Assembly (NCBI GenBank): GCA_964439345.1
Contig: CAYTNS010000002.1
Location: forward strand, 26,797-90,796
Source: an uncultured Christensenella sp.
Lineage (GTDB): Bacteria > Bacillota > Clostridia > Christensenellales > UBA1242
Direction of reading: 5' to 3'
Length of the DNA stretch: 64,000 nucleotides
Positions 2,165-46,379 of the stretch are shown piece by piece. Each line of letters begins with the position of its first letter. Within the stretch, counting starts at the first letter, position 1. A model generated the notes under the pieces. The model was not told the DNA's origin and did no database searches. It saw only the letters and a program-made list of their open reading frames with translations. Both the position numbers and the translations under genes were made by a program.

Positions 2165-5100
2165 CTAAAATACTATTTGCTCCGACTTCTTCCTATCAAA
2201 GAACTTTATAAACATATCTTTGATATTAGATACGGCAGATTTGTAGAAACTATCACTATTTAATTTAGCATAAACATCTTCTACCGTTTTTGCACTCTTT
2301 AGCCCTTCTAAAACGGTCGATATGGTCTCACCTAATTCTAGATAAGTGCCATCATCGGAAAGGGTGGAGAATTGCATAATTAGGTTTACGCCCAATTCCT
2401 CCGAACTTAAGTCCAAAGCAACATCTTTTATATCTTTGGCAATTTCACCTAGGTGCTGAGTATTTTTAAGTTCATTTATAATGTAATCAAATGAATCGGT
2501 CTCCTCGCCCCTATTCATAATGGTTCTGAATATATATTGCTGTAATAATCCCTTGATATTACATCTAATAGTCTGTCCAATAGGCAATTTAATCTCAAAT
2601 GTACTTACATCTGCATCTTCACTGATATTTCCCACAATATCTAGTGCCTCTGCAATCCCCTTCATATCTTCTTTTAGCAGTACATCATCTTTGCTATCTA
2701 GCGCCTCGTAGAATCCCTGCCTAATTCCAGCATAGATGATATCTATATTGTGCACATCTGCACCTACTGATTTATCACTATAATGTTTTTCCTCAGGAGC
2801 ATCTACAAAGTCTACATTGTCTCTAGAATTTTCATCTACAACTATATCTAATTCAAAGTATCTAGCAGTCTCAATCTCGTAACCACTTAGTCTAGCACTA
2901 TCCTTTATCTTATCTATTAGATAGGTTCTCATATTTTTCTTGACTTCGTCAAATTCTTTGATAAATTCCTTAGTTGCAATCCTTTCATCTTTCTCAAATT
3001 CTGACATCATTTGAGTTAGAGCATAGAATCTAAACGAATTCATATACACATTAATCATCTTTCTAGGACTAGTAAGCTCGGGGTGAACTTCGCTATTATC
3101 TTCCGATTTGGCTATAAAATCGCCCTCAAGTTTATCTATAGCTGACCTCTTTTCCTCAGGATATCTAGATTCAAAATCAGATATCATATCTATTTCTTCT
3201 ACTATGTATAGCATCTTATTGGCATATATTAGATACTGCTTGTCCAATTTTTCCACAAAGTCTTCGTATCTATCCACCCTCTGGGTCATAATGCTCCTAA
3301 TAACCGATGTTATCATACTAATAGTATTCTCATCTAAGCCCTTGAAGAAATTATTGATTTTCTGCAAACTAAGCATATTATTATCATAAAAATCTTCTTT
3401 TAATTTGGTCTTATTAGGGTCAATGCCGTACTTTTTGCCAAATGCCAATTGCAAAGCATACTCTTTGGCTTTTTCCTTGCTGACTAAGAATCTTTTCCTT
3501 AAGAACCAAGTATCGTCCTCATAATCTGATGGTTGCATATCGTCACTAACTACGATATTTTCTGTTACTTTGCTATCTACCTTTTTAGTAGCACTAGCAT
3601 TGTAATCTAGCCTCAAGGCATCTACCATATTCTCCATAAATTTCACCCCACCCTTTAGTGGATTTGGCTTAATTCTTAGGAGAATTTTATTATTAGCACC
3701 ATTGAATGGATATAATGTTCCGAATAGATTGGTTACATCATTATCCAATTCATCAAATAATGCACTATTTCTCTTAGTAAGTAATAAATTTTGTTCGTAA
3801 GATAATGTTCTACCCAACCTTAATATCTCATCGGCTAATTCCTTTTGACCGAAGTACACATTCCTAGGATAAGAGGTTAATCCTCCATCGGTAGAATCGT
3901 TTTTATCAATAATAACATTTTGAGCTGAAATTGAGAAACTCAAATAGTCTAGCATTCTAGAGTAGATGGCATCACTATCTAGTTGTACCATAGGCAATTC
4001 TTTCGACTCTAATTTGCCTATAAGTGTATCAACATAATTTTGCTTCATCTTGCCCGAATACTTCTCGTAATTTCTAGCAGTTTGGGTATCTCCTGTAATA
4101 ATCTTGGCTAGACTGCCTAGCATATTAAGAGCGACCTCTAGTCCATCTCTGATACTCTCTGGCAACCCACTATCAATATCACCATTGATTCTATTTTCAA
4201 TAATTATCTTTAATAGGTCAAAATCAATGCTACCCATTATCTCATCAAAATCTGATGCCACTAGCGAACTAGCAGTCTTATCTATATGCCTCTCTAGTGC
4301 TGGGGCTATATTTTTATTTAGATCAATGCTAGATATTACACTATCGTCTACTGTTACATTTGACCTACCAAGGCTTACCTTTAATGCACGGCACTTTAGG
4401 TCGGAGATAATATCATCGGCTGTAGCCTTTGCCTCAATTTTACCCGTAATATACGCATTTAGTAGGTTCCCCTTGGTCTCTACTAGGTAACTATATCTTT
4501 CGTAAGTAGCGAATGCCTCTAGGCTATTGCCATATACATTCACACCATCTTTTTGATAAGCCACTAGATATGGGATAATAGATGGCTCTACCCCACCCAT
4601 ATCATTATCTGGCATATTTACATAGTTTGTATCAACTGGGAATATATCAATATTACTTGCCTTTTGCGATGGGGTCTCTTCCTCGTTAGTAGTGGTCTCA
4701 TCATCAATATCAAGAGAATCAATATCGGTAGTCTCCGTCTCCCCCTCATAACCTAGCATTTGAGAGAATATATCATCACCCTTAGCTGGAGCATCGGCTT
4801 TGGTAAAGGTAATATCTGCCTCGGGATTTTCCTCCTCAGCAGTAGTAAATACTACACCCTTTCTCCTCTCCAATTCCCTCTTTTTATCTTCCAAAAGCAA
4901 TTCAATTAATTCTCTGGTCAAATCATTATCTAAGCCCAATGAATTAGTATTACTGCCTTGTGGATAAACAGGGGTCGTTTGTGGATTTGCCACTTGTGGA
5001 TTCTGAACTTCTACTACATTAGGAGTTGCCACATTTTGCATAGGAGCTACTTGAGCACCACTAGCATTAGGAGTAGTAGCACTTAGTGCAGATAGATTAT

Positions 5101-7102
5101 CGGCAATTTTTTCTAGAACCTCGGGATTAATCTCCTTAGTTAGCTTAACTCCATTTGTAGGCTCAACTGTATCTGTAGCCCTAGAAGCATCTAATTTTCT
5201 TAGTTTCTTTTCGTAATCTTTTTGGACTTTTAATTTCTTTAATTCTCCCCTAATATCGCCAAAATCGCCATTAATTTCGTTTACAAGTTCGGCTTTGGAT
5301 TCTGATTTTTGCTCAGTCTTAGGGGTTTTATTTATATCCTCTGCGTGGGCATCTTGAGAATACTGCTCACTGCATAATTTCTCAATTTCTTTGTCTATCT
5401 CGATTAAAGTATATTGCTTTTTGATAGCCTTTTTATCTTCCACACCATTTAATTCTATCTTGCCTTTCTCAATCTTTAGGGTTGGCTCTACTACCTTAGA
5501 TAATGTCGCCTTAATAGAATTTACGATTTCCTCGGCAGGAATAGGTTTTTTAAGAAGTTTTGCCCTCTCCTTTTTAAGAGCTATATCGGTATCTAATAGA
5601 GTATCATAGTACTTAGATAAGCATAGTACACGCCTAAATTTATTCCTGCTGGATAAAAAGTCACTATTAGCCTTTTTGTACTCTTCCGAATTTAATTTAT
5701 CTTGAACTTTTTCTAGTTGCTTTTGATAAAATTTAATCTCTTTGGAATTATCAGCTGTGGTGTCTTTAGAAAGCCTAGCAATCTGACTCTCGTAGTCATT
5801 CTTCTTCTCTAAATATCCACCCCTTTGCTCGTCTAGAACTCTATGAATTTTACTCTTCTTCATATAATCCACAGCTAGTTCGTCGGTTACTTCACCCCTG
5901 TAGGATTTAAGCTCTTGCAAAGTGCTATGTAGTGCACTAATAGCTCTAAAGGATATATCTTCTAGCCCCTCTAGATACTTAGCCTCATCACCCAATTCAT
6001 TTAGGTCTACATCTAAGCCAAAATCTTTGGAGACATTTCCAGCCTTATAGTCAGGATTATTTATCTGCTCCTCACTTAGTACCCCGTTATCATTGACAAC
6101 ACCCGATAGCGATGAGCCTATAACCATCTTTTTGGCTAGTTCATTGTGAGTAACTTTATTTGTCTTTTTCTCTTCCTCTGGCTCGTGCTCTTTTTTGAAA
6201 GTCTGCCATTTTTTTGAGTGCCTACTGTAATTTTTGATTACATTCTTAAAGTACACAGTTGGGTCTTTGAAAGTTAGTGCCGAACCGAATAATTTCTTTA
6301 AGTCCTCCACACTGGCTGTAGATATGCCTAGGCTCTCCTCTGCTTCTCTAATATAATCGGCAAAGACCTGACTGGCTGTAATAAACTTTCTAGATTCAAT
6401 TGGCTTATTCAAAAATTCATTTATGTACTTATTGCAGGTCTTTTTAGATAAAGCAAAAGATTTCTCCGATTTACCCACAAAGTACTTAATGCCATTGCCA
6501 TTCCTATTTTTTACAATGCTATATGTGCCTAGGTCGTCTTTCTCGATAGTAACACCAACATAATTAAGAGCATTCACTATATCCCTATCCTGCTCGTCCT
6601 TACTTTTCTTGCCCTTAGTAGTAGACTTTTCTTCATCAGATGGCATTATAGCGCCCTCTATATCAGAGGCAGTGTGCAAGTCAATATGGCTAAGAGTTTC
6701 CTTGGTATTTAGAATTGGCAAATATTTCTTAAGAGCCTCGTTATAAGCCTCTACCTTCTTTATCTCAATAGACGCATCTTTGCCGTCAGATAGTAGAGAA
6801 GAAATAGTGTGTAGTAGATTGCCTCTCCTATTTAGAATTTTAACCACTAGCCTAATATCCTTAGGTAGCATACCCGTCATATATTTTAGCTCGGTTGGCA
6901 AAATTCTGTACGACCTATCTACGTTTTCTGGCTCGGCAGTTTTATCCGATTTTTTCTTCTTATCGTAATTTTTTATGTAATTCTTAATAAGCAAAAGAAG
7001 CCTATCCTTATCGGTAGGCCACGAAAACCAAGTATGTGAAAATAATTCACACCCTTTTTTACTTATTTTTTTTACTTCCATTTTTCTATTTTTTATAACC
7101 AC
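2165..7102 (-). CDS. Giant hypothetical protein (1645 aa), soluble, function unknown
   Basis: Uninterrupted ORF with a GTG start at 7102 and a GGAG RBS 6 nt upstream. The N-terminal half is K/E-rich and coiled-coil-like. A Q/P/N/V-rich stretch then a D/E/T-rich linker is encoded around nt 4660-5100. No Walker A, HExxH, relaxase His-triad, LPXTG, TM or signal peptide was seen by eye. Confidence 0.85.
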   Translation of the reverse strand: MVIKNRKMEVKKISKKGCELFSHTWFSWPTDKDRLLLLIKNYIKNYDKKKKSDKTAEPENVDRSYRILPTELKYMTGMLPKDIRLVVKILNRRGNLLHTISSLLSDGKDASIEIKKVEAYNEALKKYLPILNTKETLSHIDLHTASDIEGAIMPSDEEKSTTKGKKSKDEQDRDIVNALNYVGVTIEKDDLGTYSIVKNRNGNGIKYFVGKSEKSFALSKKTCNKYINEFLNKPIESRKFITASQVFADYIREAEESLGISTASVEDLKKLFGSALTFKDPTVYFKNVIKNYSRHSKKWQTFKKEHEPEEEKKTNKVTHNELAKKMVIGSSLSGVVNDNGVLSEEQINNPDYKAGNVSKDFGLDVDLNELGDEAKYLEGLEDISFRAISALHSTLQELKSYRGEVTDELAVDYMKKSKIHRVLDEQRGGYLEKKNDYESQIARLSKDTTADNSKEIKFYQKQLEKVQDKLNSEEYKKANSDFLSSRNKFRRVLCLSKYYDTLLDTDIALKKERAKLLKKPIPAEEIVNSIKATLSKVVEPTLKIEKGKIELNGVEDKKAIKKQYTLIEIDKEIEKLCSEQYSQDAHAEDINKTPKTEQKSESKAELVNEINGDFGDIRGELKKLKVQKDYEKKLRKLDASRATDTVEPTNGVKLTKEINPEVLEKIADNLSALSATTPNASGAQVAPMQNVATPNVVEVQNPQVANPQTTPVYPQGSNTNSLGLDNDLTRELIELLLEDKKRELERRKGVVFTTAEEENPEADITFTKADAPAKGDDIFSQMLGYEGETETTDIDSLDIDDETTTNEEETPSQKASNIDIFPVDTNYVNMPDNDMGGVEPSIIPYLVAYQKDGVNVYGNSLEAFATYERYSYLVETKGNLLNAYITGKIEAKATADDIISDLKCRALKVSLGRSNVTVDDSVISSIDLNKNIAPALERHIDKTASSLVASDFDEIMGSIDFDLLKIIIENRINGDIDSGLPESIRDGLEVALNMLGSLAKIITGDTQTARNYEKYSGKMKQNYVDTLIGKLESKELPMVQLDSDAIYSRMLDYLSFSISAQNVIIDKNDSTDGGLTSYPRNVYFGQKELADEILRLGRTLSYEQNLLLTKRNSALFDELDNDVTNLFGTLYPFNGANNKILLRIKPNPLKGGVKFMENMVDALRLDYNASATKKVDSKVTENIVVSDDMQPSDYEDDTWFLRKRFLVSKEKAKEYALQLAFGKKYGIDPNKTKLKEDFYDNNMLSLQKINNFFKGLDENTISMITSVIRSIMTQRVDRYEDFVEKLDKQYLIYANKMLYIVEEIDMISDFESRYPEEKRSAIDKLEGDFIAKSEDNSEVHPELTSPRKMINVYMNSFRFYALTQMMSEFEKDERIATKEFIKEFDEVKKNMRTYLIDKIKDSARLSGYEIETARYFELDIVVDENSRDNVDFVDAPEEKHYSDKSVGADVHNIDIIYAGIRQGFYEALDSKDDVLLKEDMKGIAEALDIVGNISEDADVSTFEIKLPIGQTIRCNIKGLLQQYIFRTIMNRGEETDSFDYIINELKNTQHLGEIAKDIKDVALDLSSEELGVNLIMQFSTLSDDGTYLELGETISTVLEGLKSAKTVEDVYAKLNSDSFYKSAVSNIKDMFIKFFDRKKSEQIVF

Positions 7103-7202
7103 AGTTTTCTCCGTAAATATAACAAATCAAATTTAATATACTCCCCTATATGAGGCTAAAATTTACACCTCATATAGTAGAATATCTTTATATTCAAACT
7201 AA

Positions 7203-9890
7203 TTAATATTCAGTTTGAAGTGCTTTTAAATAATTAGGGTTATTAAATAATTCCTTAGTTGTATTAAGTGCTTCTATCTGTACAGTTGTTCTATTCATAG
7301 GACCTGTAATCAAGAAACACTGACCACGACCGGCTGTAACTATGGAGTTCTGCTCCTCCTCATTTATACCACCGGCATTTCTATATAGAGTGATAAGGTC
7401 ATTGATATCGGCTGGGGCTAGTGACATTATTATAGAATACTGACAGGCATTGATAACGGCTGTAGATTGCTGAGCAATTTCTTCCGAACCAACGAAGTCT
7501 TTGATATTCTGTGTAATGATTATTAGCATTCCACTATATTTTCTTATACGTTTAGCCATCTGCGCCATAAAGTCTAGCGCTATTGGGAATTTCTTATTGA
7601 TAAATACGTGCGCCTCATCAACTGCACATATAACTCTACGCTTATCCTCTTCGGCAGCCTGTTCACCGATGTACTTTAGGTTAAAGTCACGGTTCTTGAT
7701 AATCTCGGCATCTAGGTACTTAAATACTAGTAACATCTGCGCATTAGCGATAATATCATTTCTATTGGAAATAAGTGTACGGAAGGAGAAACATATAAAG
7801 TTCTCATTGGTTTCAACAGATGTGTAACCATTCCATAGGTTGGAGTTACGACCACCTGTACCGAATTTCTCAATAAACATTCTAACTGTCTGCAAATTTT
7901 TGTAGTGATACTCATTGGTCTCCACCTCTAGCATATCATCAACCATTTGAATTAAATCATCAAATATTGGGAAATCACTAGGCTTTAGGTCGGCAACATT
8001 GACCGTACTATCTATGCCAAATTTTCTGTAAAGAGTAGCAATCAAGGAGTTCAACATCTCAAAGGCATCGGTATTGATACCCGGTAATATCAGTCTAAAG
8101 AATTGTTCCATAAACTGCAAGTGCTCATTGAAGGCATCGGTCGATTCACCCGTTTCTGCCTCAAGGGTTGCGTAAATATGGAAAGGATTAAAGATACCAT
8201 TGGTAGAGTTACCTACGTCAATTATCTTACCACCTAGGTTGTGACAAAGTATCTCGTACTCATTCTCGGGGTCAAGAATAAATACACGGGTATTATCTGC
8301 TGCGAAATTGGTAAGCAAGGTCTTGGTACAATACGATTTACCCGAACCAGATTTACCTATAACCATCATATTACTATTAACTCTTTCATTGTTTCTAGCA
8401 AAGAAATTTGCAAATACTGGATATTGATTGTATCCAATGTAAATACCTCTATCATCGTGCAAAGTGGTAGATACAAATGGGAAACATGCAGCAAGGGAAG
8501 ATGTGTGTATTCCTCTGCCATAAGGCTTAGCTAGGGTATCTAGTCTAGAAATATTACTAGATATAAATCCATCTACTTGTCTAGCGAAGTTCTCGGCGAA
8601 TTTGAAACCATTCTGTCTAAGAACTGCCCTAACCTCTTTTTTAACGGCATCTTTGGCTACAATATGAATAGTTGTATTGTAAAGCTGCTCATTTGAACCC
8701 TTGATACCTTTCAAAAGTTCTTTTAAGGTCTCAATGTGTTGCTCAACGTCAATCTTTTCGGAGCTACGCATATTTTTCTGTTGTTTAATCTCCATCTCCA
8801 TCAAAGATTTATCTAGGTCTTTTTCGGCCCTGTATCTATCTATAGGAGATATATTAACTACTACCCTACTCTCATCTAGAGCAAATAGTGGATATGCCCA
8901 CGCATTAGGTACTTCGATAGGATAATCGGTAATGGAGAATATTCTGTATTTCTCACCATCAATTTTGGTGGTCTTTAGGTCAAATCTAACTTCATCGGGA
9001 TAAGTCCACGCAGCCTTTTCGTTTAGGGAAAGAAGTTCAATCTCTCTTTCGTCAAAGTTACTGCAATAGGTAGACTTCATAAATACATATAGCTGGTCAC
9101 CTGTAACAATCTCGGTGTAAATAGGAGTAACCGAACTTTCAAGCGTACTAACTATACCATTTACAGTATTATTAAGTGCGTCTCTATCGGTATCGTAGAT
9201 AACCATATAGTAGTGGTCCTTAATAATCTTTTCGGTATCATTCATAAATTTAATAGCCTGTAACCTTTCGTCAAATACTGGGCTACGGCTATCTAGTTCG
9301 GCTGCCGAATAGAAACCTTTTTCGTACATATCATTTAGGACATTGAATCTATAGTCCTCGTACTTAGCCATATCATCTAGTACCATTGGCTTCTTTACCT
9401 TGACAATACTACACTGCTGATTTAGGTTAAGTCTCTGAATAGCTGTAGCAAAAGCATTGATAGTCATATCCTGCTTATCTTCGGTAAGCAATCCAAATGA
9501 CATAGGATATATCTCAATTACACTACCATAGTACTCACCGAATTTTAAGAATCTATCGGTATTGATATCATCGAATGGCATAATATTTTTAATATTCTTG
9601 CTACCAGTAGCTTTCTTGGAATAATACTTATTGTATGCCATAAATTTAAAGGATAGGAATAAGGCATTGTACATTCTTAAGTTATCGCCCATCTCCAAAA
9701 ATAACATAGCATAAGCACCAGCAAAGAATAGCGCTGCATAGATATTGTACCACATCTGACTAAACATATTGGTAGTGGCAATTAGCACTGCTATAGCTAG
9801 ACCTATCAAAATAAATATAGCATCTAGGATAGTGAAATTCCTAAATATTGTTACTTTAACTTTGGTCCTTCTAGGAATAAATCTCATCAT
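7203..9890 (-). CDS. VirB4/TraE/TcpF-type conjugal-transfer ATPase with an N-terminal VirB3-like two-helix membrane module
   Basis: Walker A is MVIGKSGSGKSY and the Walker B-like motif is ICAVDEAHVF. The 895-aa size is typical of VirB4. The N-terminus (KVKVTIFRNFTILDAIFILIGLAIAVLI...YAALFFAGAYAMLFL) resembles VirB3/PrgI/TcpE-type modules. Confidence 0.85.
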   Translation of the reverse strand: MMRFIPRRTKVKVTIFRNFTILDAIFILIGLAIAVLIATTNMFSQMWYNIYAALFFAGAYAMLFLEMGDNLRMYNALFLSFKFMAYNKYYSKKATGSKNIKNIMPFDDINTDRFLKFGEYYGSVIEIYPMSFGLLTEDKQDMTINAFATAIQRLNLNQQCSIVKVKKPMVLDDMAKYEDYRFNVLNDMYEKGFYSAAELDSRSPVFDERLQAIKFMNDTEKIIKDHYYMVIYDTDRDALNNTVNGIVSTLESSVTPIYTEIVTGDQLYVFMKSTYCSNFDEREIELLSLNEKAAWTYPDEVRFDLKTTKIDGEKYRIFSITDYPIEVPNAWAYPLFALDESRVVVNISPIDRYRAEKDLDKSLMEMEIKQQKNMRSSEKIDVEQHIETLKELLKGIKGSNEQLYNTTIHIVAKDAVKKEVRAVLRQNGFKFAENFARQVDGFISSNISRLDTLAKPYGRGIHTSSLAACFPFVSTTLHDDRGIYIGYNQYPVFANFFARNNERVNSNMMVIGKSGSGKSYCTKTLLTNFAADNTRVFILDPENEYEILCHNLGGKIIDVGNSTNGIFNPFHIYATLEAETGESTDAFNEHLQFMEQFFRLILPGINTDAFEMLNSLIATLYRKFGIDSTVNVADLKPSDFPIFDDLIQMVDDMLEVETNEYHYKNLQTVRMFIEKFGTGGRNSNLWNGYTSVETNENFICFSFRTLISNRNDIIANAQMLLVFKYLDAEIIKNRDFNLKYIGEQAAEEDKRRVICAVDEAHVFINKKFPIALDFMAQMAKRIRKYSGMLIIITQNIKDFVGSEEIAQQSTAVINACQYSIIMSLAPADINDLITLYRNAGGINEEEQNSIVTAGRGQCFLITGPMNRTTVQIEALNTTKELFNNPNYLKALQTEY

Positions 9891-10097
9891 AATCGTGTAT
9901 CTCCATTTTTCACATAATACATTTGCATCTAGTTATCTGCCCTAGCGCCTATAAAAATACTACAAGCACCTAGTAATTTTAATCATCAAACTCTTCTCAT
10001 TTATTTTTTGAAAAAAGTCCACAAATAATGCAAATATACACTTATATATTTTAGTATACTATAATCGCCCAAATTAACAAAATATTTTAGCCAAATT

Positions 10098-10300
10098 ATT
10101 TATAATTTATTATAAATAAAAATGAAGCGTAATTTATAATTGTTATAAATGAAAGCAAAAGTGGCGTTTATATTTGTTATAAATAAAGCAAAAGCAATGT
10201 TTACGGCGATTAAAGATAAAAATGTTAAAGATATTTATAATTATCAAAAACAAAAATAAAGACATTGTTTGTAGTTGTTATAGAAAAAAATAAAAGTCCT
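10098..10300. repeat. About six degenerate tandem repeats of 33-34 bp, three of which have a perfect or near-perfect palindromic core
   Basis: Units start at about 10099, 10133, 10167, 10200, 10234 and 10268. The cores are ATTTATAA-ttta-TTATAAAT (10098-10117), ATTTATAA-ttg-TTATAAAT (10132-10150) and gTTTATAt-ttg-TTATAAAT (10166-10184). Each core is followed by AAAGCAAAAG-like sequence. Confidence 0.7.
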
Positions 10301-10354
10301 GCACACACGAAAATATTCTCCCTCAAAATACCTACTAACTTACCCAATTGCATA

Positions 10355-36932: not shown

Positions 36933-38183
36933 TTAATTTATAAATAAGAAGAAATCTTCCACCATAAAAAGTAATGTAAATATAATAATAGGTACGCTTA
37001 TCGCCTTGCCTAATTTAATTCCCCTTCTTCTCATATTCCTAATTAGCACTACCATTACAGCAATGTAAATAGCTATGCCTATTATGCCTAGATTGTATAG
37101 TGCTGTTATAAAGAAATTGTGTGTGCTATTGATAGTAACCTTTCCAGCGCCTAGACCAGCGCCATATAGTATTATGCTAGGATTTTCACCAATATATCTA
37201 AGGGTATCTACCCACAAATCATATCTATATGTGGTCAAATAATTGAGTTTGTCCTCGATATCCAAAGCAAAGAAATCATCACCAATAAATCGGTTTAAAT
37301 ATCTAACAATAAAGTCACTCTTAATAATGACCATACATAGTATGAGCATTGCACCCACTGTAACCCAAAGTAGAGTTTTAAAAGAATCAATCCTAAAGCA
37401 GTGAATGATTAAAACTAGCATTAGCACCATATAGAGTATAAAATATGTCTTTGATAGAGTGGTAAAACCTATTACGGAAAATATTGCAAAAGCAAAATAA
37501 TCCCCTTTGGAAGTCTCCCTCCTTACAATAAAATACATAAGTAAAGATAAACTAATCTCACATATCATCGCCAATTGATTAACGGTACTACATAGTGCAC
37601 CAAATCTCATTGAGCCATCGCTAAACGACATTGTCACCGAAAATAAATCCCTTAGATATGGCGATACAAAGTAAAATAAGCAATATACTACAGATAGTAG
37701 TAGTGAACCAGATAAAATCCTTAAATTACGCCTAAGTTCTAAATCCTTTGGATAATATGTAAATAGAGTAAATAGAGATATTATAGTAAGGAATGCACAT
37801 AGTTTTATAACCCAATTGGCATTGTACTCACCTATAGGCAAAGCACAGAATATTACAAATATGGCCGTAGTTATAAGGAGTGCTTTGCTAGGCTTAATCT
37901 TATCTATAAAATACGCTATTATAAAATGCTTCACCTCATAAGCCACTATACACGCAAAGTATAGCCCCACACTAAGTGGCACAGAGAGGCTAACAAATGG
38001 AATAGTAAATACAATTAATGTAAAGCCATTCTGTCTATTTTCACTAAGAACTAGTGCTAGTAGACCTATATAGGCAATATAAGCCCCCTCATAAAAGAAG
38101 CAATTAAAAACAAAAAGAATTGCAAGTAATATGCAATCAAATTTTACCCTATTATTTATATACAATTCTTTTATTTTATTCAT
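36933..38183 (-). CDS. O-antigen ligase/polymerase-family membrane protein (Wzy-like)
   Basis: About 10 or more TM helices. The C-terminal pattern YGAGLGAGKVTINSTHNFFITALYNLGIIGIAIYI is typical of the Wzy_C family. Confidence 0.6.
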   Translation of the reverse strand: MNKIKELYINNRVKFDCILLAILFVFNCFFYEGAYIAYIGLLALVLSENRQNGFTLIVFTIPFVSLSVPLSVGLYFACIVAYEVKHFIIAYFIDKIKPSKALLITTAIFVIFCALPIGEYNANWVIKLCAFLTIISLFTLFTYYPKDLELRRNLRILSGSLLLSVVYCLFYFVSPYLRDLFSVTMSFSDGSMRFGALCSTVNQLAMICEISLSLLMYFIVRRETSKGDYFAFAIFSVIGFTTLSKTYFILYMVLMLVLIIHCFRIDSFKTLLWVTVGAMLILCMVIIKSDFIVRYLNRFIGDDFFALDIEDKLNYLTTYRYDLWVDTLRYIGENPSIILYGAGLGAGKVTINSTHNFFITALYNLGIIGIAIYIAVMVVLIRNMRRRGIKLGKAISVPIIIFTLLFMVEDFFLFIN

Positions 38184-38211: not shown

Positions 38212-38913
38212 TTACTCTTTTATAGCGCCAAATCTTCTATCCCTACTCTGGAATACCTTTAATGCTGTAAGCAAATCCCTTTTATTGAAGCTAGGCCAAT
38301 GAACCTTTGGGAAATAAAGTTCGGAATAAGCTAATTGCCATAGCATAAAATTGCTTAGCCTATTTTCCCCACTGGTCCTAATGCAAAAATCTAGTGGTGG
38401 TTGACCTTTTGTATACAAGTGATTATCTATATCTTCAGGGGTAATATCTTTTAGCCCCTCTTTAGCCATCTCATTAAATGCTCTAGTCAATTCAGATTTT
38501 CCACTATAATTAAGTCCTAGATTTAGAGTAAACTCGGTATTATCCTTGGTCTCTTCCATTATTCTAACACAAGCGTCAGACAAATCTTTATCAAATCTAG
38601 TGTGGTCGCCCATAATATTGAGTTTGACCCCAGGATATTTATCCTTAAAATCTTCACTGACACACTGTCTAAATATTTTCATTAGATAGTCCACCTCTTG
38701 CTGTGGTCTATTCCAATTTTCGGTAGAGAAAGCATAAATACTAACAACATTTATTCCGTATGTATAAAAGCATTCCTTACATATTTTCTCTAAATTTTTA
38801 AATCCTGCCCTATGTCCCATCGACCTAGTCAGCCCTCTTTCTTTTGCCCATCTGCCATTGCCATCTATAATAAACGCTATATGCTTAGGCAGTTTTTTTA
38901 ATCCTTTTACCAT
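38212..38913 (-). CDS. uppS: Undecaprenyl (isoprenyl) diphosphate synthase
   Basis: HIAFIIDGNGRWA, FSTENWNRP and RTSGENRLSNFMLWQ motifs. Confidence 0.9.
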   Translation of the reverse strand: MVKGLKKLPKHIAFIIDGNGRWAKERGLTRSMGHRAGFKNLEKICKECFYTYGINVVSIYAFSTENWNRPQQEVDYLMKIFRQCVSEDFKDKYPGVKLNIMGDHTRFDKDLSDACVRIMEETKDNTEFTLNLGLNYSGKSELTRAFNEMAKEGLKDITPEDIDNHLYTKGQPPLDFCIRTSGENRLSNFMLWQLAYSELYFPKVHWPSFNKRDLLTALKVFQSRDRRFGAIKE

Positions 38914-38975: not shown

Positions 38976-40658
38976 TTAGTCAATATTTTTGTGAGTACTT
39001 TGACTCTCTTTATTTTCATTATTTTCTATTTCGTTATTAGATAGCTCTTCCTCGTTTTGGCTTTCATTTATTTTTTCAATCGTCTCGCTGGGTGCATTAT
39101 CGCTAGTAGCCTCGTCCACAACTTTTTTATTTTTCTTAAATAATTTAATTAGTATCCCCTTGCCAAAAGCAAAGCATTTCTTAAAGTCCCGAGTTGGTAA
39201 ATATGCAAGTAGCAAAAGTACTCCAGCAAGGACTATACACACGGCAAACTTAAGTATCAGTAACCACACTCCACTATCGGGAATAAGTCCACACACTAGG
39301 GAAGTAATAGTACAAGATATAGCCATAATAGCAAAGTCTCTTATGTATCTAATAAAGTACTCTTTTACTGGTTTTTTGAAATAATACTTGTAAAGCACCA
39401 TAGGCTCCCACCAAAGTGGCGCTACCACAGTACTAATAATTGTGCCTATAAATATGCCATTAATACCCATAAATTTTGCAAGGATAATAGAAACAACTAG
39501 ATTGATAACCGATTCAATAATTGGTTGCCATCTATTCTGCCAGTACAAACCAGCCGAATCCTTAAAAATACTAACAGCCGTTCTCATTCTCATTAGATAA
39601 AAACTAATACAGATAATAATAACAGTGGACATCTCGAGTAGATACTCTCCCCCACCCGTCCATAACTTAATAAACGGCTGAAATAGTGTAACTAAACATA
39701 TAGTACAAAAGGCAGAAAGACAAGAAAATATAAAACTAATTAATCTAAATTTATCATACACATATTCCGAATCGCTAGATGCTATCAAATTGCCTACACT
39801 AGCTAGTAACGCATTGCTAAGTAGAGTAAAGACGGAAATCAAAGAAGATATAATCAAGTAGTAATTTGAATATGCTCCCAGTAGCACCACACCAAAGAAT
39901 GTAGATATTAGGATATTATCGGTAGAATATACTACAGCACTGCCAATCTTGTGCATACTAAGGGCAGTAACATTTTTGGTTATTTCCTTCTTTGTGGCGT
40001 CATCTATTGCCCCAGCCTTTCCCTTAATTTCTGGAAACATTTTATTTGCAACCATACGAATTAAAATACACTCAATTAGAGTAAATAATATGCTTACAGC
40101 AAAATATAGATAGTAATTTTTGAAAACCATTAAAACGATTATTTGTATAATAGTCATTCCAATAATGCAAATAGTCTTAATCTTATTCTCTACATCATTC
40201 CTCTGATAAGCAAATAATAGCGACCTTTTGTGTGCTGCGAAGTACCCAATAAGAGTGTAAACTAGATACATAATGTATAGCACATAAATATTAATATCAA
40301 CCGTTACCCCACCACTAATAAAGTACTTAATAAATGGGGTGATTATGAGTCCAATGCCCCCAACAACTAGGGCTATTATCATATAAAATTTTTTGTAAAG
40401 GTGTTCAAGAGCTTTCACCTTTTCGGTGTCGCCATCGGCAATAGGCTTGTACATACTGAATACTATTGCACTACCTATGCCTAGTTCGGCTAAATTTAAA
40501 AAACTAAATATATTAGTAAATAATCCATTCAGTCCTAAGTACTCAGCACCCATATAATAAATAAGCACTGTACGCAACAAAAACTGTAACAAAAGATTAG
40601 TTACATATTTTATCATATTAGATATTAAATTTTTCTTAATATTCTGTGTTCTAGTCAT
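38976..40658 (-). CDS. Wzx-type polysaccharide flippase (MOP superfamily) with an acidic N/E-rich C-terminal tail
   Basis: About 12-14 TM helices, a typical N-terminus (KNLISNMIKYVTNLLLQFLLRTVLIYYMGAEYLGLNGLF), and 560 aa. Confidence 0.8.
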   Translation of the reverse strand: MTRTQNIKKNLISNMIKYVTNLLLQFLLRTVLIYYMGAEYLGLNGLFTNIFSFLNLAELGIGSAIVFSMYKPIADGDTEKVKALEHLYKKFYMIIALVVGGIGLIITPFIKYFISGGVTVDINIYVLYIMYLVYTLIGYFAAHKRSLLFAYQRNDVENKIKTICIIGMTIIQIIVLMVFKNYYLYFAVSILFTLIECILIRMVANKMFPEIKGKAGAIDDATKKEITKNVTALSMHKIGSAVVYSTDNILISTFFGVVLLGAYSNYYLIISSLISVFTLLSNALLASVGNLIASSDSEYVYDKFRLISFIFSCLSAFCTICLVTLFQPFIKLWTGGGEYLLEMSTVIIICISFYLMRMRTAVSIFKDSAGLYWQNRWQPIIESVINLVVSIILAKFMGINGIFIGTIISTVVAPLWWEPMVLYKYYFKKPVKEYFIRYIRDFAIMAISCTITSLVCGLIPDSGVWLLILKFAVCIVLAGVLLLLAYLPTRDFKKCFAFGKGILIKLFKKNKKVVDEATSDNAPSETIEKINESQNEEELSNNEIENNENKESQSTHKNID

Positions 40659-40691: not shown

Positions 40692-41660
40692 TTATTTTTT
40701 ATAGATACTATACAATAACTTATATATCCACAATAATTTATGTCTAAATAAATATGCTTTTATTTTTGCATTTCTAGTATTGCAATTATTATAATACTTC
40801 TTATAATTTGCCTTAGTGTTTAATTTTTTATATTCCTTGTATACACCTTTAAATCCTGCCAAGTATGCACTACAAGCAACCATATAGATATCAAAAGAAC
40901 TTATAGCAAAAACCTTATCATTATCAGCAAATTCTTTTCTGCATTCCATAAGTCCTGCAATTTCATTTGTAAAACGAGATACTTTAATATCTTTATTATT
41001 CATCACAGAACAATCGTTTACAAAGTAATAATACAAGCAATCGTCTACACAACTAATTTTAGTAGCTTTTTTCATCGCCTGAATTACGAATAAAAAGTCT
41101 TCGGCAATTTTTAAATTAGAATCAAATCTAATATCTTTTATAGTATCCCTTGAATATAATACTGAACAAGAACTCCTGTGACTAATCTTTCCTCCCCAGA
41201 AAACGGAAAAATCTTTATTGACTACTCTTTCACATTCTCCTCTAGCGCAATCAGAACGAAGTTCGATTATCTTATCGCCATACACCTTGTAATATCCCGA
41301 GGCAACAACCATATCCGAATTGTTTTCGTTTGCAGGAGATATCAATCTTTCTACCATATCTTCTCTCACATAGTCATCACTATCCACAAAGCAAATATAA
41401 TCGCCTTTGGCACTATCTATGCCCGTATTCCTAGCCTCGGATACTCCAGCATTTTCTTTATGAATTACTCTAATCCTGCTATCCCTACTAGCATACTCAT
41501 CACATATCTTAGGTGAATTATCTGGACTACCATCATCAACTAGGATTATCTCAATATTTTTATATGTTTGATTAATTAAACTATCTACACATCTAGATAG
41601 ATACTTTTCTACCTTGTATACCGGCACTATTATCGAGACTAGACTTTCACTCTTATCCAT
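40692..41660 (-). CDS. Family 2 glycosyltransferase
   Basis: VSIIVPVYKVEKYLSRCVDSLINQTYKNIEIILVDDGSPD, plus DSDD. Confidence 0.85.
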   Translation of the reverse strand: MDKSESLVSIIVPVYKVEKYLSRCVDSLINQTYKNIEIILVDDGSPDNSPKICDEYASRDSRIRVIHKENAGVSEARNTGIDSAKGDYICFVDSDDYVREDMVERLISPANENNSDMVVASGYYKVYGDKIIELRSDCARGECERVVNKDFSVFWGGKISHRSSCSVLYSRDTIKDIRFDSNLKIAEDFLFVIQAMKKATKISCVDDCLYYYFVNDCSVMNNKDIKVSRFTNEIAGLMECRKEFADNDKVFAISSFDIYMVACSAYLAGFKGVYKEYKKLNTKANYKKYYNNCNTRNAKIKAYLFRHKLLWIYKLLYSIYKK

Positions 41661-41677
41661 ATTGTATCCTACATTTT

Positions 41678-44183
41678 TTAATTTGTTTTCTTTTTACTCA
41701 AATCTTTTATAGCATTATACACTCTTTCACAATTGTGATTATCTGCATATTCAAAGTACTCATCGTATTTTTTATCGTCCATTTTTTCGGGGTCGCTAGA
41801 TAATGTTTCTTCTAGATTTTTCAATAAATCATCTAGATTATCCGACCACTTACCCAAGCCATTATTCCTATAACTAAAATACCCCTCACTATACTGATAC
41901 TTTCTAAATTTTTCTTCATCAAATTGATAGAATAATACAGGCTTCTTCATATACCAAAAATCAAAGAAAACACTTGAGTAATCAGTTATCATAATACTAG
42001 CTTTCTTTAGCACTTCTTGAATATCGTTATTTTCCCAATTACAAATAGTTATGTTCTCGCTCTTCGCCTCAAAACTAGATATATATTTTTGCATATTTCT
42101 ATGAGGATAGAATAGCAATTTTTTATTATACTTTTTAAGTATCTTATCTAGTTTATCAGATTTTAAAAATTCTGACCAGCCTTTGTAGTAGTCAGTATCT
42201 TCAAATTTTTCACTTCCCTCGATATCCCTAGTCTCCACACCTTTTGCAATCCATTGCCTCCATGTAGGCATAACTAGGATAGTATCTTTATCTAAAATAT
42301 CGTTATTTAAGTTATCAAATCTAGGAAATCCTAGTAACTGCACATTACCCTCTGGATATCCAAATCTACCTTTAATAAATTCATATTCTGGACGAGTTGC
42401 AGTTACAAAAAGCCTCATATTAGTATTTTTGTAATACAGCCAATCGGTATCATCTTTAGTAACACCGTGTTGCAAAAACACCCTATTATTCTTTCTAAGT
42501 TTCAAAACTACTTCTAAAAAATAGCATACTGCAGCATTCGGTTTGCCACCCTTTTGGCTACTAATATTTTTATCTGCCACAAAGTACCAGAACCAATGAG
42601 CAAAGCCGCCATAATTAATTATCTTACCCAAATCCTTAACTTTTGCATAATCGGGAGAATTTTTATTTATAGCATAAGCACATTTTTGCTTAGGTTTATT
42701 TTCTTTTACATATTTAAAGAACCAATAGCCATTATCTCTAGCTTCATTTTTATCTTCACAAATTAGCCAAAAATCTCTTACAAAGATTTTAGTAATCATG
42801 GCAGGAATAAATGCAAGACACATAGGGATTAGGGATAAGATATCCTTCATTTTTATAAACTTTAGTTTTTGACCAATCATATCAGACTCCTCACTCTCAG
42901 TGTCATCTTCTTTATACAAAACTAGAGACAATACCCATATAAATAGTAACCTATTACCCAGCAATGATTCCTCTATCCCTAGCACACAGAACATAAATAA
43001 TGGAATAAGATTGTACATATTAAAAGTATACTTATCTTTCTTCATTTCTAGGAAGTACACTGTGATAGTTGCACATATTAACATACAACCAATTATGCCG
43101 TAATTGTATAGTAGCCCTATATACGTACTATGTGGTGCTTTTCCCCAAATATTAGGTGCAAATACCCCACAGCCAAAAATAATAGTATATACACTACTAG
43201 ACCAAACCTCTATATATTTTTTCCAAATAGAATATCTACCAGTTAAGATTACATCTAAAATATTATCATATCCATAATCTACTGTAAATCTATTTAGGAT
43301 ATCTAAAATCTTTTCTCTAAAAATTAGACAAAATATAATACCTATTATCGCACAGGCAGAAAAGAAGCTCCAACCCTGCACTTTATTTTTCTTAATATAA
43401 AAGATTGAAAATATAATTAGTAAAATTATTAGGCAAAGTAGGAAGGCTTTTGACATAGTAAAAACCCCACCTATTGCTATTATAGCTGAGGATACAGAAA
43501 ACCTTAAATTTCCTACCCCCCCTCAAAAAGTGTAACATTCCGATAGATAAAGTAATGATAGTATAGACAGCTAGAGAATTGGGATTTGAGAAAAACCCCA
43601 TAAATCTACCCTCAGTAATAAATGTCCCTCTAAGGCTAGGAAATACACACAAAAATCCAGCCAGTAAGATATTAATAATTAATCCTATTGAAGCATAATC
43701 AAAAAGGCTCTCCCTGCTAACACTATCTCTATAAACAAAGAAAATGTAAATAGAGGCAATAAGCGTAATATTGCCTAGGAAGGTAATCATATCAAATTTC
43801 TTAAAATCAATAAGGCTATAAAGGATTAATAAGATACTAAGTATCAAAGGTAGCAAAGATATTTTTTCTTCTTTTTTACATACTTTGATTAAATACTTAA
43901 CTCCAAATACAACCATTGTAATACGAAGCATAAAGGAATCAAAAGAAAAATTCCATCTTTTAAATTCCAATATGGGTAGTGCCATTAAAAATAGAAGAAC
44001 ACACACAGATTTTTCAAAGGATATAAAAAGACTTGTTGCCAACCAACAAATTAGCAATAAGAACAATAAAAAATCCATATTAATATTAAAAATTTTTGTT
44101 ACAAACCCTACTAAAAGTAAAAGTGCCATCAGCACTTTTAGGAAGACTGCATTATCAACAAATTTTTCTATTTTTTTAATCAT
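41678..44183 (-). pseudogene. O-antigen-ligase-like membrane domain fused to a TagF-like CDP-glycerol glycerophosphotransferase; split into 263-aa and 592-aa ORFs by a frameshift at a G7 tract
   Basis: The upstream ORF (43392-44183) ends in the Wzy_C lead-in TEGRFMGFFSNPNSLAVYTI. The downstream ORF (41678-43456) continues the same domain (TGRYSIWKKY...GCGVFAP...APHSTYIGLLYNYGIIGC) and then carries a Glyphos_transf-type domain (VMPTWRQW, ITDYSSVFFDFWYMKKPVLFY). Removing one G at 43516-43522 fuses them in frame. Confidence 0.75.
43516..43522 (-). repeat. Homopolymeric G7 tract (C7 on the + strand) at the frameshift point
   Basis: The + strand reads tcctaCCCCCCCtcaaaaag. In the upstream ORF it is read as HFLRGGRKF. 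Confidence 0.9.
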
Positions 44184-44244
44184 TGAAAATTTATCCTATT
44201 TATTTTATGTGTTTTTCATTTTTACTTAAAATGGAGAATCAAAA

Positions 44245-45060
44245 CTATCCCCTCAATTTCTTTTCGTAAAATTTTTGTCTTAGTTTATTAGGCATTAATA
44301 CTTGAACTACAAATCTAGTCGCTAGTATTTTTAAGTAAGTAAATAGCCCTATAAATTTAGTTTTCTTCATATACTTAAAGAGCTCTTTTTGACTCTTGAA
44401 ATATTTGTATCCACCACGCCTAGCATACAAATCTTTTGACACTCTCATTTTCACAAGGACTTCGGAGTGGTTGTCCATCTTACAGCCGTGCTCTAGCATT
44501 CTAATCCAAAGGAAATAATCCTCGCAAAGTTTCATATCCTGATAATCGCCCGATTCTAATACTTTGGATTTTTTAAACACAACCGATGGGTGGCAAAAGG
44601 GATTTCTTTGCTTAGCAAATTTTAGGATATTATCCCTGCCCACAGGCACCGAATGTGTAGACACAATATTATCTATATCGTCTATAAATTCTGCCACCTG
44701 CGACCCCACTAGGTCTAGGTCATTTTCTTCCATTAATTGCAATTCTTTTTCCATTCTATCTGGCAAAGAATAATCGTCACTATCCATTCTAGCAACTATC
44801 TCATTTGAGCATAATGCCAAGCCTTTTTTCATAGATAGGCCTAATCCTAAATTTACTTCATTTGGATATACTTTTATCTCTTTATTTTCTTTTGCCAAAC
44901 TAGATATTTTTTCATTTAATTCACTAGATATTTCGCCATCTATTATTAGTACGACCTCATCTGGTCTGATAGTCTGATTAAGCATACTATTTATAGCCAC
45001 TTCCACCCAATCAGGTCTATCCTTTTTGTATACAGATATTAGTACGGAATATTTTTCCAT
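44245..45060 (-). CDS. Family 2 glycosyltransferase
   Basis: YSVLISVYKKDRPDWVEVAINSMLNQT and RMDSDD motifs. The start is set at the ATG at 45060 (AAGGGAG RBS, 2 nt after the upstream stop) rather than the track start at 45096. Confidence 0.85.
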   Translation of the reverse strand: MEKYSVLISVYKKDRPDWVEVAINSMLNQTIRPDEVVLIIDGEISSELNEKISSLAKENKEIKVYPNEVNLGLGLSMKKGLALCSNEIVARMDSDDYSLPDRMEKELQLMEENDLDLVGSQVAEFIDDIDNIVSTHSVPVGRDNILKFAKQRNPFCHPSVVFKKSKVLESGDYQDMKLCEDYFLWIRMLEHGCKMDNHSEVLVKMRVSKDLYARRGGYKYFKSQKELFKYMKKTKFIGLFTYLKILATRFVVQVLMPNKLRQKFYEKKLRG

Positions 45061-45061
45061 T

Positions 45062-45823
45062 TTATTCTCCCTTAGTTCCTTGCAACTTTTCATCATACTC
45101 GATAGTTGCTCTTTTCTCTTTTGTTAGCCTATCTGCCTTAGCTAAACCCTCTTTGTATTGCTCCTTTGTAATTACATTATCTTTAAGCAATTGGTCGGGA
45201 TAGTAATATTCTCTTTTATTTTTATCTTCACTAGCACCCTCGGCACTGCCACCTTTAAATACGGCTAAAAATGTGCCAAAGAATAATTTAATATCTGTCC
45301 AAAGAGACACATTATTTGCATACCATATATCTCTGGCAAATACACTCTCCCAACTAAGTTCGCTATTTCTATCGTAAACCTGAGCAGGGCCTGTAAGACC
45401 TGGTCTAACGGTATTTGCTTTTAGTACCTCTTCGCTATAGAATACTTGGTCTTTTATTAGCCTTGGTCTAGGGCCAACTATACTCATATGTCCTAGTAAG
45501 ATATTAAAAAGTTGTGGCAATTCATCTAGGCTAGTTTTACGCAAAATCTTTCCCCAAGTAGTTATCCTATCTTTATCTGGAAGTGGATTGCCATCTTTAT
45601 CCTTTTTATTGCTCATACTACGGAATTTGTACAAAGGGAAGATTTTATTATTCCTACCCGGTCTATACTGCTTAAAAATTGGGTTACCCCTAAGAATGAT
45701 TGCAGATAGTATGTATATTAGCAGGATTAAGGGACTCAAAACGATTATCGCTATTAGAGATATTAAAAAGTCCATTACTCTTTTAAAAAATCTATTATAT
45801 ATTCCATCACTTTTATTTTTCAT
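45062..45823 (-). CDS. Monotopic phosphoglycosyl transferase (bacterial sugar transferase family; initiating enzyme)
   Basis: FKRVMDFLISLIAIIVLSPL, PIFKQYRPGRNNKIFPLYKFRSM, DELPQLFNILLGHMSIVGPRP. Confidence 0.85.
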   Translation of the reverse strand: MKNKSDGIYNRFFKRVMDFLISLIAIIVLSPLILLIYILSAIILRGNPIFKQYRPGRNNKIFPLYKFRSMSNKKDKDGNPLPDKDRITTWGKILRKTSLDELPQLFNILLGHMSIVGPRPRLIKDQVFYSEEVLKANTVRPGLTGPAQVYDRNSELSWESVFARDIWYANNVSLWTDIKLFFGTFLAVFKGGSAEGASEDKNKREYYYPDQLLKDNVITKEQYKEGLAKADRLTKEKRATIEYDEKLQGTKGE

Positions 45824-46061
45824 AATTTTGCCTTTTGTATTTTAAAAAAATTACTTTTACTCACACCGGCATAAATACATATATTTAATAATATATTTAT
45901 TTAAAGTGCCAAGACTGGGGATATTATAGCACCCCAACCCCAAATCGGTCAAACGAATGAAATGTGTAGATATAGAAATATACATACTCACACTAATGTA
46001 TTTCCAAACCCGAATGGGTACTACATATTGGGGCAATAATAAAGGAAAAGGTGGTGGAATT

Positions 46062-46379
46062 ATGAGGCGAAAAGAAAAAGAGAAATTAATAGAAGATTAT
46101 GTAACCATCTATAGACTAATGGTGGTATACAAAAAGTACACTCTAGATAGCATATCTCCCTTAGACAAGATGTACAATCTCACCCTAAAACTAAAAGACC
46201 GGATAGAGGAAATAATTTTTTCAAAAAAACTAAATGACACCTCTTATCTAGTGCTAAAAGAGCAATTGGATTTTTGCCTAAAAGATTACAATAGCAGTAC
46301 ACTACAATACGACGAAGAAAAGTATATAGAGACGCTAATATCCATAGGCGAAAATTTGCAAAAGTATGCCAAGGTATAA
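46062..46379 (+). CDS. Hypothetical small helical protein (105 aa)
   Basis: The ATG at 46062 is preceded by AAAGGAAAAGGTGGTGG. The track's longer start at 45957 has no RBS. Confidence 0.5.
   Translation: MRRKEKEKLIEDYVTIYRLMVVYKKYTLDSISPLDKMYNLTLKLKDRIEEIIFSKKLNDTSYLVLKEQLDFCLKDYNSSTLQYDEEKYIETLISIGENLQKYAKV

Follow-up and report, generated by a model that had tools for sequence, protein, structure and literature searches.

Phase variation of a surface polysaccharide at a short G/C tract has a precedent in Neisseria meningitidis, where the capsule gene siaD carries a poly-C switch (Hammerschmidt et al. 1996, cited as ref. 24 in PMC3723569). The locus described here lies in 64,000 nucleotides (nt) of DNA from an uncultured Christensenella sp. 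(hereafter, the window), where a run of seven G's (G7) stands at the point at which the reading frame of a putative glycopolymer gene, encoding a Wzy-like/TagF-like fusion protein, is broken. Both sites are short intragenic G/C homopolymers in a surface-polysaccharide polymerase gene, in which a one-base change leads to premature termination; the siaD tract reportedly has a length of 7. In siaD, loss of the polymer is reversible by slippage, tract variation and switching have been demonstrated experimentally, and the tract is stable in the species, whereas the present tract is a lineage-specific one, represented by a single sequence, in an uncultured Gram-positive-type member of the Clostridia, and the enzyme families are unrelated.

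Two other described systems share features with this locus. In Mycobacterium tuberculosis, frameshift variants arise at a 7C tract in glpK and revert by -1 or +2/+3 changes (10.1101/717272). Like G7, this is a 7-nt G/C run inside an otherwise conserved gene; unlike it, the gene is metabolic, and reversion has been measured there, whereas our site is known from its sequence alone. M. tuberculosis lacks mismatch repair. Campylobacter jejuni has poly-G contingency loci in its capsule and lipooligosaccharide gene clusters (e.g. PMC3025981), which resemble the present case in that poly-G occurs in surface-glycan genes of an AT-rich genome and is associated with on/off switching, putative in our case. 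However, C. jejuni has dozens of such tracts, usually G8 or longer, as opposed to a single G7 in the 64 kb of the window.

The split gene and its G run

We consider it certain or nearly so that one gene is present, and that it is split within 30 nt containing the only G/C homopolymer of at least 6 nt in the window. The run reads as C7 on the + strand at 43516-43522 (TTCCTACCCCCCCTCAAAAAG) and as G7 on the coding (minus) strand, where the sequence across the site is CACTTTTTGAGGGGGGGTAGGAAATTTAAGG and the seven G's are positions 43522-43516. With G7, a 263-amino-acid (aa) open reading frame (ORF; 43392-44183, minus strand) terminates as ...MLHFLRGGRKFKVF...NLLY and a stop, 41 codons past the tract. 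Removing one G (G6) enters the frame of a 592-aa ORF and produces an 834-aa ORF reading ...MLHFLRGVGNLRFSVSSAIIAIGGVFTMSKAF...; G9 likewise restores the frame, with 835 aa, and G8 is out of frame by arithmetic only. Tract length thus decides whether the full-length protein can be expressed, and G7 is out of frame. The original prediction, which had located G7 at these positions on the coding strand and quoted both translations, with G7 leading to a stop at 43392 and G6 into the 592-aa ORF, was reproduced in each of these respects. It had also placed the run exactly at the frameshift, which is consistent with the data at a resolution of 30 nt, though not established for the single base. Directly 5' of the tract, at 43525-43523, the downstream frame has a TGA, and from TCC TCA (43492) onward the codons are clearly homologous in that frame, which confines the frame change to 43522-43493 (30 nt; 43493-43525 on the minus strand, with the bounding TGA included). 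The tract accounts for 7 of these 30 nt.

The window contains 126 G/C runs of length 4, 21 of length 5, none of length 6 and one of length 7. The mere existence of one G7 in 64 kb is insignificant, as dinucleotide-preserving shuffles yielded a mean of 2.6 G7/C7 runs per 64 kb, with at least one in 80 of the 100 shuffles. Such runs are clearly avoided in the real sequence (2 overlapping matches to the G6 pattern, versus 11.8 expected). Among the long ORFs inspected in the window, a single split gene was seen, and it is far beyond chance (about 30/64000) that the sole run of at least 6 nt falls inside its 30-nt frameshift interval. The tract is built from rare codons, with GGG making up 6.7% of Gly codons and AGG-GGG occurring in none of the 41 other Arg-Gly pairs.

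That the two ORFs form one gene, as had been proposed, is confirmed by full-length, single-frame orthologues of 823-847 aa, which are found in the same operon and gene order (44-85% identity overall). Two of these have 835 aa and 75-76% identity (P0003, P0004), one has 834 aa (P0016), and five more distant ones have 823-847 aa and 44-54% identity (P0006-P0010), each in a single frame. The two proteins with 85% identity (P0001, P0002) were called at 773 aa, but a 5' truncation of these relatives (L001:1765-1950, L003:3995-4180) was rejected: their ORFs are open to the same MIKKIEKF start, and the shorter call reflects the gene caller's choice of an internal Met. P0016 was also considered as an intact G6 allele and ruled out, as it has a normal KGDLG at the site and is shorter by one N-terminal residue.

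Apart from the frameshift, the gene is in good condition. After repair, no other stop or frameshift was found in its 2.5 kb, and dN/dS versus three relatives was 0.21-0.28 for residues 1-221, 0.13-0.20 for residues 223-440, and 0.06-0.09 for residues 441-834; in the relatives, the TagF half is far more conserved than the membrane half. Whereas a decaying pseudogene would be marked by several lesions and relaxed constraint, this gene has a single frameshift and low dN/dS. Since it is otherwise undamaged, the frameshift must be recent, reversible or an artefact.

The reconstituted gene (41678-44183, minus strand) encodes a Wzy-like/TagF-like fusion of 834 aa (G6) or 835 aa (G9). Its 5' fragment, the 263-aa ORF, is annotated as a separate protein (P0017) and consists of about 222 residues, representing the N-terminal half of a Wzy-like multi-pass membrane domain, and of an out-of-frame tail of 41 residues. 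The 3' fragment (41678-43456, minus strand; 592 aa from ATG 43456, in a frame open from 43522) completes the Wzy-like domain and adds a further transmembrane helix and an entire TagF-like CDP-glycerol glycerophosphotransferase domain; the source record starts it at GTG 43381 and annotates a 567-aa protein (P0005). A GGTGGGG sequence lies 8 nt upstream of ATG 43456, and independent translation of the 3' ORF may thus be possible.

The TagF-like domain matched Pfam PF04464 (Glyphos_transf) over residues 472-825 of the repaired protein, with 117.5 bits (threshold 22.1). In a Foldseek search with an AlphaFold model of the orthologue P0003, the C-terminal half matched TagF, TarL and the capsule polymerase Cps3D, in agreement with a profile search (8va1, 8qoy, 3l7i), and the model superposed on TagF with a Foldseek probability of 1.0 and a TM-score of 0.61, normalised to TagF. 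Neither search found a solved-structure match for the N-terminal domain. The likeness to the TagF/TarL polymerases and Cps3D (PDB 3l7i, 8va1, 8qoy) thus concerns the C-terminal 400 residues; unlike in those enzymes, the TagF-like domain is fused here to a Wzy-like membrane domain of about 440 residues. This architecture is uncommon: among the 150 best representative clusters, 3 gave a full-length match, and the TagF-like part was common as stand-alone proteins of about 400 aa.

The membrane domain was less readily assigned. Pfam PF04932 (Wzy_C) gave a weak match over residues 232-369 (29.1 bits versus a threshold of 31.7; E 1e-6), and the same family is precomputed for most of the orthologues, where it is marked 'weak'. 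Kyte-Doolittle hydrophobicity peaks extend through the first ~380 residues, with one more at ~448-466; these peaks and the long helices of the P0003 model (mean pLDDT 74; over the first ~300 residues, 75-91 in most blocks of 10 residues) fit a predicted multi-pass membrane domain. Arg, His and Gly positions that are conserved among the orthologues would fit the Wzy_C family, and the label 'O-antigen-ligase-type' is likely to be appropriate, although it does not amount to a clean family call. Conserved residues are found both before the break (R193 and N202, the latter in an NPN motif) and after it (G315/R316, G337/G339, H351 and G362/G365), and to this extent the earlier proposal that the domain is divided across the break was supported; the Pfam match, however, starts after the break and is below threshold. 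In the P0003 model, the break is located in a short loop that joins two predicted transmembrane helices (200-219 and 225-240). This loop is variable, and a change of one residue in it would likely be tolerated.

The operon promoter in this and sister lineages

The fusion gene belongs to an operon with a putative promoter at 45923-45952 (minus strand), consisting of TTGACC, an 18-nt spacer and TATAAT with a TG extended -10, which was the best candidate in the region (11/12 matches). The spacer holds an interrupted tract, GGGGTTGGGG, at 45932-45941. Its counterpart in sister lineages is an uninterrupted homopolymer of G9-G12 between -35 and -10: every close relative has a long poly-G about 120 nt upstream of the first operon gene (Bac_transf), inside a promoter close to consensus, TTGACT-ATTCT-G(n)-TGC-TATAAT, again with a TG extended -10. 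Spacer length follows tract length (17 nt with G9, 18 with G10, 19 with G11 and 20 with G12). Across 16 contigs, G9 was found in 5, G10 in 4, G11 in 1 and G12 in 2 (tracts at L002:3366, L003:2232, L004:3368, L008:7371, L009:881, L010:116, L011:100, L012:5878, L013:4880, L014:2878, L015:2878 and L018:62), and the remaining 4 contigs (L001, L005, L016, L017) begin inside the tract. Contigs with identical flanks (110/110 nt upstream and 999-1000/1000 nt downstream) nevertheless had tracts of 11, 9, 10 and 9, and two other lineages showed 9 versus 10 and 12 versus 9. The promoter tract is the sole G/C run of at least 6 nt in each sister locus, save for one G6 in L013.

The pattern is that of a promoter-spacer homopolymer switch such as the one of meningococcal opc. 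In opc and porA of N. meningitidis, homopolymers lie in the promoter (PMC3447861; Sarkari et al. 1994, as cited there), and the sister-lineage promoter is alike in that a G/C homopolymer between -35 and -10 sets the spacer and differs in length among otherwise identical sequences. It is unlike them in that the evidence consists here of sequence only, and in that the extended -10 may buffer the effect; in the window, furthermore, the tract is interrupted. Short-read assembly noise at long G runs is an alternative explanation for the variation. An inverton-type switch was also considered and rejected, for lack of convincing inverted repeats around the promoter.

The closest relative found (L019, from SRR10277274; 97.5% nt identity) has GGGTTGGGG at L019:1340-1360 versus GGGGTTGGGG in the window (compared over 45929-45946), giving a 17-nt rather than an 18-nt spacer, and each of the four indels that distinguish the two sequences falls in a homopolymer (A8/A6, T6/T5, G3/G4, T8/T7). 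Judging from these comparisons, this lineage has lost the uninterrupted promoter tract and carries the intragenic G7 instead, and the promoter-spacer mechanism is probably disabled in the window strain.

Readings of the G7 allele

Our preferred reading, to which we tentatively give a probability of about 0.37, is that G7 is real in the DNA and represents the OFF state of a reversible slipped-strand site. A length change at the G run would have put a single gene out of frame, and loss of one G (G6) or gain of two (G9) would restore the protein of ~835 aa. G7 would truncate the membrane domain after residue 222, in the inter-helix loop, with loss or alteration of the polymer as the expected result; an internal start might still allow synthesis of the TagF-like part. 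The operon would be a target of on/off selection in this group, with sister lineages regulating it via the hypervariable promoter-spacer poly-G, and, the promoter tract being interrupted in this lineage, the intragenic run would be the remaining mutable site. The sister-lineage tract supports phase variation at G7 indirectly. Three elements of this reading are inferred: the absence of an assembly error at G7, a useful rate of reversion, and the nature of the phenotype.

Several observations weigh against it. The original prediction envisaged a comparison of tract length in related strains, but the tract is absent from all close relatives aligned at the site (L001-L005, L008 and L012), which read GGGGATTGGGG, AAAAATGATTTTGGC or similar and have no G run of at least 6 nt in the gene; nothing therefore shows that the tract is kept up by selection. 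Seven is also short compared with the G9-G12 promoter tracts, and the switching rate would probably be much lower. Moreover, variability is the defining property of a switch, and a single sequence of this allele was present across all collections searched. An exact-pattern scan of metagenome contigs for the tract and its flanks gave 0 matches, a protein-guided scan of metagenome contigs found no relatives, and a scan of genome representatives found only two distant metagenome-assembled genomes (MAGs; 54% and 63%). Exact look-ups of the window proteins found none on record; the G6-repaired protein was not in the protein collection, where the G7 allele was present once. L019 ends ~80 nt beyond the Bac_transf gene and does not reach the fusion gene. 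Among named relatives, the nearest carry the label Christensenellales or Clostridia, with ArgS identity of at most 76%, and, as all named relatives are MAGs, the source is probably metagenome-derived as well, leaving room for consensus error. Finally, there is a tendency across the Firmicutes as a whole to avoid simple repeats (PMC3315296).

The run may also be the product of the lesion rather than its cause. At the site, L008 reads TTA AAG GGG GAT TTG GGG ATT GTA and L001 reads TTA AAA GGG GAT TGG GGA CTT GTA, versus TTG AGG GGG G.. GTA GGA AAT TTA in the window, which has 2 nt fewer than any of the close intact relatives in the alignment. G9 thus brings the gene back to the length of its orthologues, and G6 leaves it one codon short. 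On this alignment, G6 is not the obvious ancestral state. Three histories fit: a G6 that gained one G, a G9 that lost two, or an AGG GGG GAT GTA that lost 'AT'. Deletion of 'AT' from a GAT (Asp) codon, which is present in 4 of the 5 close relatives, yields exactly the present G7, and would make it the outcome of a deletion and not of slippage. Whatever its origin, G7 could revert by slippage (-1 or +2).

The first alternative, which we regard as only somewhat less probable, is a one-off loss of function. The window would then carry a young pseudogene allele, created by a +1 slip or a 2-nt deletion, perhaps under phage/host pressure, and the G run would be only a mutational hotspot or a deletion by-product, and switching back would not occur to any meaningful extent. 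The tract is short and the sole one in 64 kb, it is missing from the close relatives read at the site, and an 'AT' deletion accounts for it exactly; in addition, a second, stand-alone Wzy_C gene could make the membrane domain dispensable. However, as there is neither a second lesion nor a sign of relaxed constraint, inactivation would have to be very recent. The operon of sister lineages also shows clear marks of recurrent on/off selection, and G7 can be reverted by -1 or +2 regardless of how it arose.

A consensus or assembly error at the homopolymer, with a true sequence that is in frame (G6, G9 or GGGGGGATG) and an intact gene, ranks next, only slightly behind. Homopolymers are the classic site of indel errors, although a 7-mer is within the range normally called correctly by short reads and by polished long reads. 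Inside the long ORFs of the window, ten A/T runs of at least 7 nt and 88 of at least 6 nt leave the frame unbroken, and in twelve neighbouring genes the length is identical to that of the L008 orthologue (the two glycosyltransferases flanking the split gene differ); this assembly is thus not generally prone to homopolymer errors. On the other hand, the gene is otherwise perfect, as an error would leave it, the record is likely a metagenome-derived genome, judging from its named relatives, and G7, being the sole G/C run of at least 6 nt, provides no other examples from which to gauge an error rate.

Less probable again is the view that one glycan operon is under a two-level poly-G contingency system, with the promoter tract acting in most lineages and the intragenic G7 in this one. 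The window lineage would then have locked its promoter tract (GGGGTTGGGG) and would switch the Wzy-like half of a bifunctional enzyme, which could change the structure of the polymer and not just its amount.

Recoding and a natural split are very improbable even when taken together, and each on its own is remote. In the former, a full-length protein would be made from G7 via +1 ribosomal frameshifting on G GGG GGU, where the run lets tRNA-Gly re-pair in the +1 frame and a Shine-Dalgarno-like GAGG precedes it, or via transcriptional slippage; yet neither a slow codon nor a stop codon occupies the A site, efficient RNA polymerase slippage is known from runs longer than G7, and the orthologues are single-frame without the run or any slippery site, so that no such device is conserved. 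In the latter, two genuinely separate genes would act as a split enzyme, consistent with the two proteins called in the source annotation, the weak Shine-Dalgarno-like motif at the internal ATG and the frequency of stand-alone TagF-like proteins, but the split lies inside a membrane domain, between conserved residues, the 41-residue out-of-frame tail of the 5' ORF overlaps the 3' ORF, and no relative shows such a split.

The operon and implications for the Clostridia

All genes of the operon are on the minus strand. The first encodes a 253-aa initiating sugar-phosphate transferase (Pfam Bac_transf; 45062-45823) and is followed by a 283-aa GT2 glycosyltransferase (44245-45096) and by the fusion gene; a 322-aa GT2 glycosyltransferase (40692-41660) starts 17 nt past the fusion-gene stop. 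Downstream are a 560-aa hydrophobic protein (38976-40658), which has no Pfam match, is kept in all related loci and is by its position a candidate flippase, a 233-aa undecaprenyl-diphosphate synthase (Pfam Prenyltransf; 38212-38913) and the second, stand-alone Wzy_C protein (416 aa; 36933-38183), whose match of 32.6 bits is above threshold. The conserved order is FolD, a small divergent ORF, Bac_transf, GT2, GT-D in some loci, the fusion gene, GT2, the 560-aa membrane protein, UppS and the second Wzy_C. This domain content suggests an undecaprenyl-carrier, Wzy-type pathway for a glycerol-phosphate-containing, teichoic-acid-like polymer.

The GT-D glycosyltransferase gene lies upstream of the fusion gene in L002, L004, L005, L008, L012 and L013 (e.g. 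L002:5118-5987, L004:5118-5987, L008:9118-9987) and is absent from L001, L003 and the window, where its counterpart is the gap at 44183-44245; its presence or absence points to structural diversity of the polymer among lineages. The conserved small ORF divergent from the operon promoter (45957-46379, + strand, in the window; L002:2919-3236 and equivalents) has ~105 aa in the relatives and no Pfam match, and could be a regulator of the operon.

Elsewhere in the window, the left part (2165-18690) resembles a conjugative element, with a TraG/VirB4-type ATPase (7203-9890), an AAA/DUF4143 protein (14162-15508) and a type IV coupling protein (16621-18690). It also has very large ORFs, of 1645 aa and 883 aa, without a Pfam match. 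Rfam (gathering threshold) and tRNA scans of the 64-kb window were both empty. No Rfam match was obtained even though the window has argS and pheST, genes that have T-box leaders in many Firmicutes, with upstream gaps of 350-990 nt.

For annotation, the locus calls for caution, as the two called 'proteins' (P0017 and P0005) are one enzyme; if G7 is an assembly error, the finding reduces to this correction. The better-supported result is the promoter tract of the sister lineages, whose length varies between otherwise identical contigs and at which contigs break, and which points to homopolymer-based contingency loci in Clostridia. To our knowledge, the examples of phase variation in Clostridia use DNA inversion. 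Switching at G7, if true, would be repeat-based phase variation of a surface glycan in this class, by a mechanism that would be of a known kind in a new host and gene family. If G7 is real and reversible, an uncultured gut anaerobe is able to switch a surface glycopolymer on and off, or to remodel it, by simple slippage, which would matter for resistance to phages, for recognition by the immune system and for the dynamics of strains in the gut.

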